A stretch of 64,000 bases of DNA from a virus (IMGVR_UViG_3300047557_002951:64001-128000), one strand, 5' to 3'. Counted from the stretch's first letter, positions 39,188-46,630 are shown. Made by a program: numbers and translations. Notes: generated by a model from the sequence alone, not told the origin.

Positions 39188-39709
39188 TTATTGGTGCTTT
39201 TGTAGGTATTTAACGGCATTGCTTAATGTGCTGATATTATCACCGACCAATCCTAACATTCTATTACAATTGCTACAAAGTAATCCACGCACCTTTCCAG
39301 TATTATGGTCGTGGTCCACATAAAGATTTTTACTATCTTTTCTACCATTAGTATTTGGATTTAGACAAATAGCGCATACTTCATTCTGCTCTTGTAATAC
39401 ACTTTTATACTGCTCTAAACCAAAGTCTTCTCCATAAGTATATTTTAACATATAGTCTTTCTTATCATCATAAGAAGGTCTCTTATCTTTATAGTCTTTA
39501 CTATAACAATCTTTACACCTTTTATGACCTTTATAATACTCATCAATAAGTTTTTCTACACCACATTTATTGCAGACAATATGAGTTTTACTTGCCCAGT
39601 TTTCAGCATAAGTTTTCTCTTCACACCTCATACACCTTCTACGACCTTCTCTAAAATCAGAGGAGGGAAGTTCTTGTGTGCAGGTTCTACAAATCTTCGT
39701 GGTTCTCAT
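39188..39709 (-). mobile_element. Free-standing endonuclease VII-family homing endonuclease (F-CphI-like) downstream of psbA
   Basis: Two N-terminal CxxC Zn fingers, then Q...CAIC...VDHDH.TGKVRGLLC..CN..LG; TATAAATA late promoter at 39731-38. Confidence 0.85.
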
Positions 39710-39796: not shown

Positions 39797-41828
39797 TTAA
39801 CCGATGGTTGGAGCAGTAAGAGCAACAGGAGTTGTTTCTGCTGATGCCAAATCCAGAGGGAAGTTATGTGCGTTCCTCTCATGGAGCACTTCGAAACCAA
39901 GATTTGCTCGGTTAAGAATGTCTGCCCAAGTGTTAATCACATGACCTTGACTATCAAGAAGTGACTGATTAAAGTTAAAACCGTTACTCTGTTTCCTTAA
40001 ATTTACCATCTTTAAGGAGAGGACTATATCTTCATCCCAGTAGGATGTTGGGCGCTAGTGTCGTATTACATTCCACGCTTGGAAAACCGACTAGTCTCTG
40101 AACCTTTCCAAGAAGCGTCTTGGACTTGGCTGCTGATTACCCATTTATGGAGGGCTTCCAGCAATTCACCCAAAGTTTACCGTCAAATTGCTAGGACGGG
40201 ACCCCGACGATTGAGGTTAAATGCCATCGTAGAAACACCAAGAGCAGCGAACCAGATTCCAACTACAGGCCATGCAGCAAGGAAGAAGTGTAGACTGCGT
40301 GAGTTATTAAAGGAAGCATATTGGAAAATAAGGCGTCCGAAATAACCATGAGCAGCAACGATGTTATAAGTCTCTTCTTCTTGGCCGAACTTGTAACCAT
40401 AATTCTGTGACTCTTGCTCAGTTGTTTCACGAACCAAAGAAGAAGTCACGAGCGATCCATGCATTGCTGATGCGAGAGAACCACCGAAGACACCAGCCAC
40501 ACCAAGCATGTGGAACGGATGCATAAGAATGTTGTGCTCTGCTTGGAATACAAGCATGTAGTTGAAAGTACCAGAGATACCCAGAGGCATCGCATCAGAG
40601 AAAGAACCTTGACCGAAAGGATAGACCAGGAATACAGCAGAAGCAGCAGCAACAGGAGCACTGTAAGCAACGCAGATCCAAGGACGCATACCTAGACGGT
40701 ATGAAAGTTCCCATTCACGACCCATATAAGCATAAATGCCGATAAGGAAGTGGAACACTACAAGTTGGAAAGGACCACCATTATAGAGCCACTCATCTAG
40801 AGAAGCAGCTTCCCAGATGGGGTAAAAGTGCAGTCCAATAGCATTGGACGAAGGAACAACAGCACCAGAGATGATGTTGTTTCCGTACATTAAAGAACCA
40901 GCAACTGGTTCACGAATCCCGTCTCTTATCCCAATAAAACAGTCATATCTTGCGACTTAGACCGTTTCAGTTGACCTATTTGATTTGCTCGTTTTGCGTT
41001 TTCTACTCTTCCACCATTTTCTACCCACTCTTTCCACTCATTAATATAAGAAATACATTCTTTAATTCTTTCACTTCTTCTATTTCCCATATGGGGAAGT
41101 ATTTTTTCCAAAATGAAAAGAACTTTTTCTCTATTTCCTATATGAAGGACATAAACTGGTTTTCCTTTGAGTGTTTTTCTATTAGGTACAAAATAGGGTT
41201 TATCTACAAAATTACTTAGTTTAGCAACCACATCTTCATCAGTCATAACAAGACGAATGTATGGTGCTGGCGGTGCTTTAGAAAAGTCATAACGGTCTTT
41301 AGAACGATTATCTATTCCAAAGTATCCTTCACCTTCTAAAATTCCTGCAATCCAAGTAATTTGTGATTCTGTTAAATCAAGCATTTTGACTTCGCATCTA
41401 CTGTTATATTTATACAGCAAGTGCGAATAAAAGTCAACTGTGAGATTTGGACTATATCTTCACCCTTTAAATTTTTTAAAGGTGCTGGGCACTCTAGCCT
41501 GTTATTAAGGGGACTAAACCCCTCAGGTAGTCTCTGAACCTTCCTCAAGTGTACTTGAGGCTTGGCTGCTGATTGCCTTTCGGTTTCCAGCAATTCACCC
41601 AGTTTTAACATCATCCTTACGGATGAAGGACACAGATTAAAGCAGTATGTCTACGGGAGGTGCTGCAATAAATGCAACAATAAAACAGATAGTTGCCGCA
41701 AGAAGGCAAGGAATCATAAGAACTCCGAACCAACCAACATACAACCTATTATCGGTTGAAGTTACCCAGGAACAGAATTGTTCCCAGAGGTTTTCGCCAG
41801 AACGGCGTGAAGCAATTGAAGCAGTCAT
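39797..41828 (-). CDS. psbA: Photosystem II D1 protein in three exons: 41647-41828, 40214-40924, 39797-39986 (1083 nt, 360 aa)
   Basis: Joining exons restores ...PPVD-I-DGIREP... and ...[12 protein letters not shown]...; ends [23 protein letters not shown]. Confidence 0.97.
39987..40213 (-). mobile_element. Group I intron 2 in psbA (227 nt, no ORF)
   Basis: P/Q/R/S elements AATTGCTGGAAG, AATCAGCAG, GTTCAGAGACTA, AAGATATAGTCC; exon ends in U (ACCU/GGGU P1); intron ends in G. Confidence 0.92.
40925..41646 (-). mobile_element. Group I intron 1 in psbA (722 nt) carrying a homing endonuclease
   Basis: P/Q/R/S elements AATTGCTGGAAA, AATCAGCAG, GTTCAGAGACTA, AAGATATAGTCC; P1 GACAU/GUGUC with U-G at splice site; terminal G at 40925. 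Confidence 0.93.
40926..41384 (-). CDS. Intron-encoded single-motif LAGLIDADG endonuclease
   Basis: [12 protein letters not shown] motif; TATAAATA late promoter at 41407-14 supports ATG at 41384. Confidence 0.85.
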
Positions 41829-41844: not shown

Positions 41845-41953
41845 AGTAAAAAGTCCAGGGGGAACTGGATGGTTACAGTATATCCCACACCACCCTCCAG
41901 TGTGGGTATGAGAGACGGATTTTACTTGCCCATTAGTCTCGGTAGGGCAAGAT
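41845..41953 (-). ncRNA. PhotoRC-II-like structured RNA in psbA leader
   Basis: CUUGCCC..GAGAC..GGGCAAG hairpin with loop GAGAC complementary to downstream GUCUC; CCCACAC..GAGGG..GUGUGGG hairpin; directly 5' of phage psbA. Confidence 0.7.
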
Positions 41954-42026
41954 AAAAAGAAAAGTATTGTATTTTCAATGTTCGGTGATGCAGTTTGTCA
42001 GGAAACCCTGACTTCCCTCACCGACT

Positions 42027-43864: not shown

Positions 43865-44407
43865 ATGTCTTATTTATCATTGATTTTCATAAATAATCAA
43901 ATGACATTAAAAGGTACAATTGTGCCAAGAGAATTTAATACTCCGCATCGACAAGACTGGAACGCACCGATACATAATATCCTAAAAGCAATAGATAATC
44001 ATAATCAAGAATATTTTAAAACTCAAGATATATGGCATATAGAAAAAGCAAAAATACTTCGAGAATATGTGTCAGAACTCAAAACCTGGATTCATAAACA
44101 AGAAAATGAACAATAAAAAAAGAAAATGTTGGGATTTTGTAATGTCTTCATTTGCAAGATCTTATGGAGTCAAAAAAATCATGGCAGAAGAAAAATTTCA
44201 TGAGATTGCATTATTTTGGTGCGATGAAAACGAGATAGAAAAATATAAGACCCTAGAAGAATATGATAGATATTTTAGAGAACTTTATGAGAACTGGACA
44301 TGAATGATTTTCCTTGGGGCGTTAGTATAGGTCTTGGAATTGTACTTTTAGGAACATTATCATTTATTGTTTATATAATGCTTCTAGACAAGTTAGAAAA
44401 AAATTAA
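43865..44407 (+). CDS. Three small ORFs (to 44116; 44106-44303; 44300-44407 single TM)
   Basis: WNAPIHNILKAIDNH family; overlapping stops/starts; ATAAATA late-promoter-like site near 43889. Confidence 0.6.
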
Positions 44408-44748
44408 TGTACGAATACAAGATAAAAAAAGTAAATAAAATTATCGATGGTGATACTATAGATGTCGATATAGATTTGGGATTTAATATTACAATTTCCC
44501 AAAGAGTTCGTCTAGCTGGAATCAATGCACCAGAAACAAAAACTAAAGATTTGAAAGAAAAAGAAAATGGAATAAAATCTAAAGAATGGTTAGAAAATAA
44601 ATTAAACACAAAAGAACAACTAACCATAAAAACTGAAAAAGATGATAAGTATGGGAGAATACTTGGATGGATTTATATTGAGGAAAACCAAATTTCAATA
44701 AATAATCAGATGATAGAAGAAGGATACGCAATTTCTTATCTACCGTGA
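44407..44748 (+). CDS. Thermonuclease (SNase-like) family protein
   Basis: IIDGDTIDV.IDLGF.....RVRL.GINAPE...DKYGRILG...N..MI.EGYA. Confidence 0.88.
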   Translation: MYEYKIKKVNKIIDGDTIDVDIDLGFNITISQRVRLAGINAPETKTKDLKEKENGIKSKEWLENKLNTKEQLTIKTEKDDKYGRILGWIYIEENQISINNQMIEEGYAISYLP

Positions 44749-44808
44749 AAAATGCACTACTCATTGGATTGTTGGTCATAAGACTCATCACCAACGAAGG
44801 AATTTTCA

Positions 44809-45141
44809 ATGAAGGAAGAAGACCTCAACCAAGAAAACAATTCCCAGAAATCATTAGATTCATCCGAAGACCAGCCAAAAGAGGTAGGAAAAAAGCAAAG
44901 TTCATTATTGAATAAACTTATCTTTATTATCTGTTGTTCTGTGATTGGATTTGTTGGAATCAATTTTATTGCATGTAACTTTATGGTTCCTGGAACAATT
45001 AGTAGAGCAAATGTTCTTGGAGGATTAAAAAACCCTCCTCCTTTAGATTGCAAAGAATCTGAAAGAAGAGGGTATGAAACTTTATTAACTATTCTTACTA
45101 CAGTAATTGCATTAAGAACACGAGTTGAAGATAGTGATTAA
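44809..45141 (+). CDS. Small membrane protein (two hydrophobic segments)
   Basis: LIFIICCSVIGFVGINFIAC and LLTILTTVIAL. Confidence 0.65.
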   Translation: MKEEDLNQENNSQKSLDSSEDQPKEVGKKQSSLLNKLIFIICCSVIGFVGINFIACNFMVPGTISRANVLGGLKNPPPLDCKESERRGYETLLTILTTVIALRTRVEDSD

Positions 45142-45695
45142 ATAACCTCACAACATCTCTTATAATACTTCTCACGATCAGCAAGTCCATTTGCTGGATC
45201 TCTGCCATTAACTCTTGCTGATACCTGACGACAAGTAGCACCAGAATCACAAAGTTCATTCATCTTATTTGTCATCCACCAGAAACCAGAAATTGTGAAT
45301 GGATAATTCTCTGCAACATAATTTACTCCATTCATTACATTAGGATCTTTAATATAATTCGCAAACTGCTGATAATTATATCTCCCAGTTACCTGAATAA
45401 ATCCAGCGCCTTTATATCTTGGCCCATCACCATTTTGAGTGTTTCCAAGATCTTTTCTTCCTTCATAATCAGCGCCAGAAGCAAGTTCTTTCATCCAACG
45501 ACCACCATTACTCTCATGAGAACATTGAGCGAGAAAATGGCGAATTCTTACTTTTGTTGTAATGCTGAATGTAGTCAAACACTTATGAAGTTCCTGCACT
45601 TCCTTATCTTTGATTAAAGATTCTGCACAGTTCCAGATATAAGCAAGTTGTTTTTTTGTTGGTAAGGCACCACCTTGTGATGGTGCCTCTTCTAC
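45138..45695 (-). CDS. GH19 chitinase/endolysin domain (probably reached by -1 frameshift)
   Basis: HFLAQCSHES...EL..G..YEGR.DLGN...DG.RYKG.G.IQ.TGRYNY...VNG...NGL.DR; frame open back to the slippery site at 45695. Confidence 0.88.
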   Translation of the reverse strand, partial: VEEAPSQGGALPTKKQLAYIWNCAESLIKDKEVQELHKCLTTFSITTKVRIRHFLAQCSHESNGGRWMKELASGADYEGRKDLGNTQNGDGPRYKGAGFIQVTGRYNYQQFANYIKDPNVMNGVNYVAENYPFTISGFWWMTNKMNELCDSGATCRQVSARVNGRDPANGLADREKYYKRCCEVI

Positions 45696-45701
45696 TTTTT
45701 T
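45664..45701 (-). promoter_or_regulatory. Programmed -1 frameshift signal
   Basis: A_AAA_AAG immediately before UAG, then a 6-nt spacer and a 10-bp hairpin AGGCACCAUC-ACAA-GGUGGUGCCU. Confidence 0.8.
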
Positions 45702-46408
45702 ACTGGTTCAAAGATTCTGCCCCATCCATCATTGGGATGCTTTACTGTCCATCGTCTTTCTAGCATCCGTTTAGCATAAACAACTCTTTTCCCATTGGAT
45801 ACTGGACCAGAATACCCATCCAAAATTGAACCATATGGATCACTTACAATATAGTTTCCACTTTCGTTTTTCCCATGTACACAAATCATATGACCAGTTC
45901 CAGTAGGAGATAACTCTGGACCACGATGAAGAATTCCAATCACAACTGGACGACCAGCAGAAAGTTCTCGATCTAAATCATCAAATCCTAAATTATAATG
46001 AAACTTAGAGTCTAATCCATAAGACTTCAATACTCTCGTTTGAACATCATGATCTGTCGAATTCCCTTGTGCTAAAACTTTTCTAAGATAGGCATCATCA
46101 CCTTTTGTCCCTGATGGTAATGATCCTGGCTTCAAATACTCAAGACACATTGCACAAGCAGATGAATTGCAAGTAGAATCTGGTAGTTGATAGTTATCTG
46201 TTTGTGGATAGAATGGTACATCCAAAAGAATTCCTTTTAAGTCCTGTGAGATATTTTGTGATCTATAGATTCTTATCCAGTTAGATGTGTCATCTAATAA
46301 CTCTGGAACTTTTTCTGCCAATAGTCGTTCAAAATCATCTATTGCTGCACGATGCTTTGGATTCTTGTCGTCGTAGTACTTGAAAAAATTGTTTAAATCT
46401 ACTCTCAT
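45692..46408 (-). CDS. C39-like peptidase (lysin N-terminal part)
   Basis: LDVPFYPQTDN.....TCNSSACAM...GRPVVIGILH.G...GH......Y.VSDPYG. Confidence 0.82.
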   Translation of the reverse strand: MRVDLNNFFKYYDDKNPKHRAAIDDFERLLAEKVPELLDDTSNWIRIYRSQNISQDLKGILLDVPFYPQTDNYQLPDSTCNSSACAMCLEYLKPGSLPSGTKGDDAYLRKVLAQGNSTDHDVQTRVLKSYGLDSKFHYNLGFDDLDRELSAGRPVVIGILHRGPELSPTGTGHMICVHGKNESGNYIVSDPYGSILDGYSGPVSNGKRVVYAKRMLERRWTVKHPNDGWGRIFEPVKK

Positions 46409-46410
46409 TT

Positions 46411-46569
46411 TCAATACCTGAATTCTTCTAATCTATCTAGGAGTTCATTCAAATGTTTATGTGCCAGTGATTTGGGATCACTTGTATAATATGGTTCAGT
46501 TGAAACCTTATGTTTTTGCTTCAAAATTAAAACTTTAATCTCATCTTTCGTGATGTGATTTCTTGGCAT
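46411..46569 (-). CDS. Hypothetical protein (52 aa)
   Basis: Missed by ORF track: MPRNHITKDEIKVLILK...LAHKHLNELLDRLEEFRY. Confidence 0.6.
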   Translation of the reverse strand: MPRNHITKDEIKVLILKQKHKVSTEPYYTSDPKSLAHKHLNELLDRLEEFRY

Positions 46570-46574
46570 ATACA

Positions 46575-46607
46575 AAAAAACTCTACCACCTATTTAGTGG
46601 TAGAGTT
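46575..46607 (-). terminator. Terminator with late-promoter-like CTAAATA in its loop
   Basis: AAACTCTACCAC-TAAATAG-GTGGTAGAGTTT plus T-run. Confidence 0.7.
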
Positions 46608-46630
46608 TAAAATTTATAGTTTTTATGTTA

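Follow-up and report, generated by a model that had tools for sequence, protein, structure and literature searches.

A lysin gene with a predicted dnaX/IS-type programmed −1 ribosomal frameshift in a freshwater T4-like cyanophage and its relatives

A lysin gene on the minus strand of a T4-like cyanophage appears, with a probability of about 0.87 judged from comparison of related sequences, to be expressed through a programmed −1 ribosomal frameshift of the dnaX/IS type; that ribosomes slip at its heptamer at all is very likely. The gene lies in a stretch of 64,000 nucleotides (the window, to which all positions refer unless a related locus is named), which is part of a virus record of 159.6 kb that is about 75% complete. 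The source, of freshwater (lake) metagenome provenance, is a T4-like cyanophage in which psbA, hli, ferredoxin, pstS and porin genes adjoin the lysin locus, and its host is presumably a picocyanobacterium.

The 0-frame ORF (45692-46408, minus strand; ATG at 46408, TAG at 45692-45694) encodes 238 aa (26.9 kDa), i.e., an N-terminal module (N-module, residues 1-50, 46259-46408) and a C39-like papain-fold domain. As an earlier note on this DNA had proposed, it ends in the slippery heptamer A_AAA_AAG (45695-45701, Lys237-Lys238), which directly abuts the stop codon, and the hairpin described in that note is also present (45665-45688, 10 bp including one U-G pair, six nt after the heptamer). With a flanking G-U pair, this putative stimulatory hairpin (45664-45689, 4-nt loop) has 11 bp and begins after 5 nt. 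The −1 frame, rightly described as free of stops into the GH19 ORF, is open for 185 codons from 45695 (45138-45695, minus strand; TAA at 45138-45140) and encodes a short linker and a GH19 lysozyme-like domain with the catalytic Glu of its HES motif at 45513-45515. The predicted trans-frame fusion of both frames comprises 423 aa (47.8 kDa), and its tryptic peptide VEEAPSQGGALPTK lies upstream of any −1-frame start, so that a slip is its only source. Taken alone the window hairpin is modest (z −1.97 against dinucleotide shuffles and about −1.8 against synonymous shuffles). In-frame A_AAA_AAG occurs at 11 sites in the genome (192 ORFs) and is adjacent to a stop only at the lysin, where the −1 frame extends over 185 codons compared to at most 18 at the other sites and the hairpin reaches −19.1 kcal/mol compared to −9.1 at best. 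A G-rich stretch about 15-18 nt upstream of the heptamer pairs in an SD-like manner at −6.2 kcal/mol, but it encodes an invariant Gly-Trp-Gly.

The 0-frame ORF matches PF13529 (Peptidase C39-like; E 6.7e-11, 43.4 bits, cut-off 24), and its residues Q69, C80, H173 and D190 are invariant among 61 sequences. A fold search with the C39-like domain retrieved 3erv (Z 15.7, rmsd 3.3, 156 aligned residues) and, among further neighbours, the pseudomurein endoisopeptidase PeiR (8z4h, Z 14.7), but leader peptidases and toxins as well; the domain presumably cleaves peptidoglycan. The −1-frame ORF matches the endolysin profile phrog_181 (E 1.5e-35) and the solved GH19 endolysin of PWe2 (9ms7; E 1.4e-35, Foldseek TMt 0.75), and scores 25.0 bits against PF00182, just below the cut-off of 25.5. 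It is a GH19 fold with the catalytic HE(S/T) Glu, and its role as a hydrolase is predicted.

Between the lysin gene and a terminator-like hairpin (46578-46608) lies a 54-aa ORF (46411-46575, minus strand; phrog_566, function unknown). A promoter scan at the lysin locus gave a count not above that of shuffled sequences, and coverage by the RNA run X19 was confined to the upstream hli/ferredoxin region. On the opposite strand (44407-45141, plus), an SNase-like nuclease gene is accompanied by a 56-aa ORF and by the gene of a 110-aa membrane protein, which overlaps the GH19 stop codon; the lysin is followed by the same convergent small membrane gene, a candidate for a holin/spanin-like function, in many relatives (e.g., L284). 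On the plus strand the hairpin at 45665-45688 also has a terminator-like score and is oriented towards the convergent genes, possibly a second use. Two group I introns interrupt the psbA gene (39797-41828, minus strand) and match Rfam RF00028 at 41427-41656 and at 39995-40223; within the first is a Pfam-negative 164-aa ORF (40926-41420), probably a homing endonuclease, and a PhotoRC-II RNA is located upstream of psbA at 41870-41963. Directly after psbA follows a 173-aa ORF (39188-39709, minus strand) with Cys pairs and an HNH/endonuclease-VII-like motif, which we take to resemble the free-standing endonuclease beside psbA in S-PM2.

The comparison set comprised 273 related loci (160 distinct at 95%), which were sorted solely by the position of the lytic domain. 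In 88 distinct loci, the lytic domain is in the −1 frame without an ATG at the junction, and 85 of these have A_AAA_AAG, two have U_UUU_UUU and one has neither; the heptamer was found in none of the 26 distinct stand-alone peptidases and in three of the 20 ATGA-coupled loci. The 85 heptamer loci are related, hence not 85 independent events, and on the tree the forward cassette shows at least seven changes across supported branches. The codon choice of the heptamer has a chance of about 0.08 per locus (background of the same genes). Conservation concerns the bases of the heptamer and not the residues, because its first A is constant under a varying residue (V, A, T, S, I or E) and its last G is constant under a varying −1-frame residue (V, G or A). 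The downstream enzyme is GH24 in most loci and GH19 in the group of the window; in one relative (L005) the window's hairpin precedes GH24, and the nearest tree neighbour of the window (L094) has GH24 with a different hairpin. The earlier note had anticipated relatives with a conserved heptamer, stop and covarying hairpin, possibly with exchanged downstream domains, and dozens of such diverged loci were indeed found, with the exchange of GH24 and GH19 among them. S-CAM7 (L085:3692-3760) and L258 have U_UUU_UUU and a 13-bp hairpin at the same junction, and the annotated “lysin” of S-CAM7 has residue 81 of the −1 ORF as its first residue, leaving out the catalytic Glu. The position of the S-CAM7 cassette among plain fusions points to a separate origin.

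Several relatives depart from this layout. Four loci (L083, i.e., S-SRM01, L037, L218 and L223) combine the heptamer, or a decayed one, with ATG or GTG at the junction and a weak hairpin. They may represent a step from frameshifting towards translational coupling, which would give a lysozyme without the N-module. In L124 (2689-2720) the peptidase ends in A_AAA_AAA-stop and the lytic domain is deleted, a cassette relic. S-CREM1 (L081), P-SS2 (L089), L040 and L075 have both domains in one frame in reversed order, lysozyme first and C39 last. Glucosaminidase-C39 fusions are present in the ESM Atlas, and C39 and GH19 homologs co-occur in contigs of Pseudanabaena, Roseofilum, Planktothrix, Laspinema and Synechococcus (L293-L311).

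In the 63 nt after the heptamer, compared with synonymous-codon shuffles at 75 loci, the mean z of folding was −2.2, whereas four windows further downstream gave −0.04 to −0.22. Covariation was counted inside one equal-length family of 28 sequences because hairpin families use different registers. In this family, 90% of the cells were paired and six of the 14 pairs had changed on both sides, exceeding all or nearly all shuffles and exceeding slid controls; this covariation is limited by the relatedness of the sequences and by the coding function of both arms, and the pairing may partly follow protein conservation. A single global stem register for all GH24 loci was rejected, with at best 64% paired and families differing in register (arm-swap control for this global register, 470 versus 376 ± 9). 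Motif and spacing of the lysin cassette agree with the rules established for E. coli, i.e., A_AAA_AAG with a structure 5-8 nt downstream (PMC4066793).

Alignment to the predicted 423-aa product extended over the full length for more than 20 natural C39-GH19 proteins encoded in frame (415-424 aa) and also for the 422-aa endolysin of S-H34. One extra A puts exactly the predicted junction in frame in L172 and L173; in the model of L172 (pLDDT 87), the N-module and the peptidase are followed by a disordered linker, located at the junction, and by GH19. Such extra-A fusions show, at the level of predicted structure, that the type of product made by a trans-frame event folds and is used. The frameshift is not essential, since the relatives also include plain fusions, ATGA-coupled pairs and stand-alone peptidases.

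Some in-frame fusions carry what may be called an inverted cassette, in which A_AAA_AAG is followed by a hairpin 5-7 nt on and by a −1 stop 1-4 codons later. These are the ACG-2014f clade (z −0.7 to −1.5; 45 near-identical isolate records), L004/L099 (z −2.5 to −2.9) and a GH19 clade (L289, L374/L394 and L395) with three different hairpins (z −2.2 to −3.4), compared to a mean z of −0.4 in 12 distinct plain fusions without the heptamer. The nearby −1 stop alone was discarded as evidence, since plain fusions have one too and it is expected by chance in AT-rich DNA. A single clade of inverted cassettes was rejected (AU p 9e-119, with phage recombination as a caveat), and they seem to represent three separate lineages. 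A slip at an inverted cassette would truncate the fusion to the peptidase, about 240 aa long in ACG-2014f, and would yield the same two products with the polarity of dnaX. They could be relics, and we rather favour the reading that they indicate selection for the short form too.

Against ribosomal slippage at the window locus other explanations have to be weighed. An assembly error, or a broken gene, in which an A was lost from the homopolymer would account for a break that falls in an A run and for the existence of extra-A fusions, but it is refuted: contigs of three studies (run X2, possibly the source, and runs X4 and X6 of other studies) cross the junction gap-free, which argues that the junction is no assembly error, and 85 distinct loci have the same layout, as does S-PM2, an isolate that was sequenced at least two times. 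These contigs have no extra A in the A6 run, as far as contigs, which hide rare variants, reveal this, and L092 and L093 (98% identical) have the same six-A run. Relatives with an extra A, named beforehand as a refutation, do exist (L172, L173, L043, L132, L212 and L397) and show that the fusion can be locked in frame, but they are a minority state and do not refute the frameshift, because the six-A form is far commoner and sequence-supported in the window phage. Their occurrence at four or more places in the tree, together with the proneness of A and U runs to such indels (PMC4066793), would also fit a fusion that owes its origin not to the ribosome but to slippage in transcription or to A6/A7 phase variation of the DNA. 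We regard this as very improbable: the run is merely six A, the contigs of the three runs show no indel (with the same reservation for rare variants), and the conserved AAG G, the reading phase and the 3′ hairpin at 5-7 nt are needed by ribosomal slippage only. An explanation of still somewhat lower probability is that of two genes, with GH19 translated alone, leaderless or by re-initiation, and the heptamer and hairpin incidental. The −1 frame has two possible starts before the HES motif, the internal GTG (45597-45599) that gene callers choose and that had been reported earlier, and a TTG seven codons later. The 153-aa ORF started at GTG retains the HES motif, cyanobacterial genes are often without an SD, and ATGA-coupled peptidase/lysozyme pairs are common among the relatives. 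However, independent initiation at this GTG found no backing, since the codon is unconserved and probably no real start: it is GTA, GTT, GTC or CTT in L092, L093, L095, L096, L174 and L172; none of the five close relatives with a frameshift layout has the GTG, HES is not preceded by any start in L092 and L095, and the similarity to 9ms7 begins upstream of the GTG. True stand-alone lysins, moreover, have their own N-module, which the GTG product would lack, and the heptamers in 85 of the 88 loci would be left unexplained. No ATG, GTG or TTG precedes the catalytic Glu in 39 of the 85 A_AAA_AAG loci, and ATG does so in only four. S-PM2 has a cassette of A_AAA_AAG, UAA, a hairpin and 163 open codons, with a predicted trans-frame product of 394 aa, and its annotated 72-aa “putative lysin” p157 comprises only the part of the −1 ORF from residue 92 on, beyond E24/D33/T42; a frameshift would account for this lysin being annotated as a fragment without catalytic residues.

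The N-module (about 50 residues) also fronts stand-alone GH24 lysins (L385 and L386) and GH19 lysins (L276, L277 and L279), and a diverged copy is found at the front of the ATGA-coupled lysozymes, where the HMM gave a weak match (best E 0.004) and the profile-profile comparison settled homology (hhalign 93%, E 2.7e-7). An ESM Atlas feature search and fold searches, in which residues 1-53 were barely covered, gave no named family for it. When two copies of the 238-aa protein were modelled together, the homodimer score was 0.55 compared to 0.00 for the best of three controls (the mark set for this score is attained by 20 of the 30 solved pairs and by one of the 23 single chains), and the runs agreed in at least 81% of the contacts with a pLDDT of at least 80. 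The predicted interface is confined to residues 1-50 and centred on the invariant F9 and W44, and the N-module is therefore predicted to be a dimerisation domain. Since both products carry the N-module, dimers with a content set by the slip are the simplest model.

Translation would start at a single site, the ATG at 46408, and proceed until the two Lys codons occupy the P and A sites and the hairpin obstructs the entry of the mRNA. Some of the ribosomes would then slip back one base and produce the 423-aa protein (N-module, C39-like peptidase, flexible linker and GH19 muramidase), and the others would end at the next codon with the 238-aa protein (N-module and peptidase), so that the slip rate would determine in what proportion peptidase-only and peptidase-glycosidase subunits enter the lysin dimers. 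The efficiency of A_AAA_AAG stems from tRNA-Lys(UUU) reading AAG (PMC4066793). Among five genomes of Synechococcus/Cyanobium/Vulcanococcus, three have tRNA-Lys(UUU) only and two have tRNA-Lys(CUU) too, located about 200 nt from tRNA-Lys(UUU) in Synechococcus Tobar12-5m-g (L387) and Cyanobium Cruz-8D1 (L389); no tRNA-Lys was found in the about 75% complete phage record. The CUU species should damp the slippage, and efficiency may be lower or host-dependent because some picocyanobacterial genomes add it. Of the earlier proposal that two forms are made at a fixed ratio, the two forms made by frameshift are supported comparatively, but the fixed ratio is not, given tRNA-Lys(CUU) in two of the five genomes.

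The product is likely to be used as endolysin, because the about 75% complete genome yielded no further gene for GH24, SLT, glucosaminidase or GH19, and because the virion proteome of P-SS2 contained 0 peptides of ORF098, a distant homolog (PMC2784084). The same observations, together with the location of the gene among auxiliary metabolic genes and outside the structural module, make it improbable that the products are virion-associated or capsid-packaged enzymes with the N-module as a packaging tag, an idea that draws on the best-known phage frameshifts being in virion proteins (PMC10885494). More weight belongs to the possibility, unlikely in our estimation, that the frameshift is real but merely damps a potent glycosidase (timing or dose of lysis), with the 238-aa form a by-product and the inverted cassettes relics: signal-free plain fusions function in many phages (12 distinct fusions, and the S-H34 endolysin), and IS elements employ signals of this kind solely to limit a fusion (PMC4066793). 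On the other side, the inverted cassettes of three lineages would have no other effect than to make the short form, the residues of the peptidase triad do not vary, genes for the peptidase alone persist (26 distinct), and a role for the short form follows from the predicted N-module dimer. Selection for both forms and the formation of mixed dimers are accordingly somewhat favoured by us. A broader reading, offered tentatively and at slightly less than even odds, is that T4-like cyanophages have a two-subunit lysin tuned by recoding, in which the N-module, as a previously undescribed dimerisation module, joins a peptidase-only chain to a peptidase-glycosidase chain. The need for both chains would have been satisfied several times in different genetic ways (forward A_AAA_AAG, independent U_UUU_UUU, inverted dnaX-like cassettes or two coupled module-bearing genes), with a ratio that possibly depends on the tRNA-Lys of the host.

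T4-like cyanophages are major agents of picocyanobacterial death, and their lysis is poorly understood. The −1 recoding mechanism itself is textbook knowledge, and endolysins with two isoforms are known. No report of a frameshifted cyanophage lysin was found in the literature searched (with few subscription papers), and the S-PM2 literature (PMC10976474, PMC2984593, PMC4503421) does not mention one. The lysin frameshift would correct the annotation of many genomes, and lysins would join the few phage genes for which conserved programmed frameshifting is on record. Dozens of natural cassette variants in both polarities are available for recoding studies in cyanobacteria, and cultured phage-host pairs (S-PM2, S-CAM7 and ACG-2014f on Synechococcus WH7803) are fit for testing.

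Among known systems, the in-frame C39-GH19/GH24 endolysins of cyanophages (S-H34, S-N03, ACG-2014f gp211 and S-CREM1 gp9) have the same domains, but are single ORFs annotated by similarity alone with no recoding described. Shearman reportedly found in 1994 the lysin of the Lactococcus phage vML3 in two overlapping genes. It is cited in the PRFect paper as a known frameshift-containing lysin (PMC10885494) and is described as a lysozyme-like lysin and a small holin-like protein (PMC3111421), not as a peptidase/peptidase-glycosidase pair; it belongs to an unrelated phage. The tail-assembly chaperone lambda G/GT is likewise a conserved phage −1 frameshift that yields a short and a C-terminally extended protein and is split by gene callers (PMC10885494), but it is another gene class, and the extension of the lysin is a swappable enzyme, GH24 or GH19. 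CTP1L, CD27L, Lys170, LysP7951, Ms6 LysA and Ply2638A produce a long and a short lysin from one locus, which can form a heteromer (PMC9430671, PMC4777826, bioRxiv 10.1101/2024.01.16.575832), and frameshifting is unmentioned in PMC9430671 and in the Ply2638A preprint. These two-polypeptide endolysins of Gram-positive-host phages arise from an internal start in the same frame and have the C-terminus and stop codon in common, whereas the cyanophage isoforms are predicted to share the start and N-terminus and to end in different frames via the frameshift, which would be a third route to a two-subunit endolysin besides internal starts and two genes. In dnaX, both products enter one oligomer. Like E. 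coli dnaX (tau/gamma) and IS3/IS911, the lysin locus has A_AAA_AAG with a structure 5-8 nt downstream (PMC4066793) and two predicted products with a common N-terminal part, and it differs in being a phage lysin with a cyanobacterial host and no clear upstream stimulatory SD. The slip would lengthen the product in most lysin loci, the polarity of IS elements, and would shorten it in some relatives, the polarity of dnaX.
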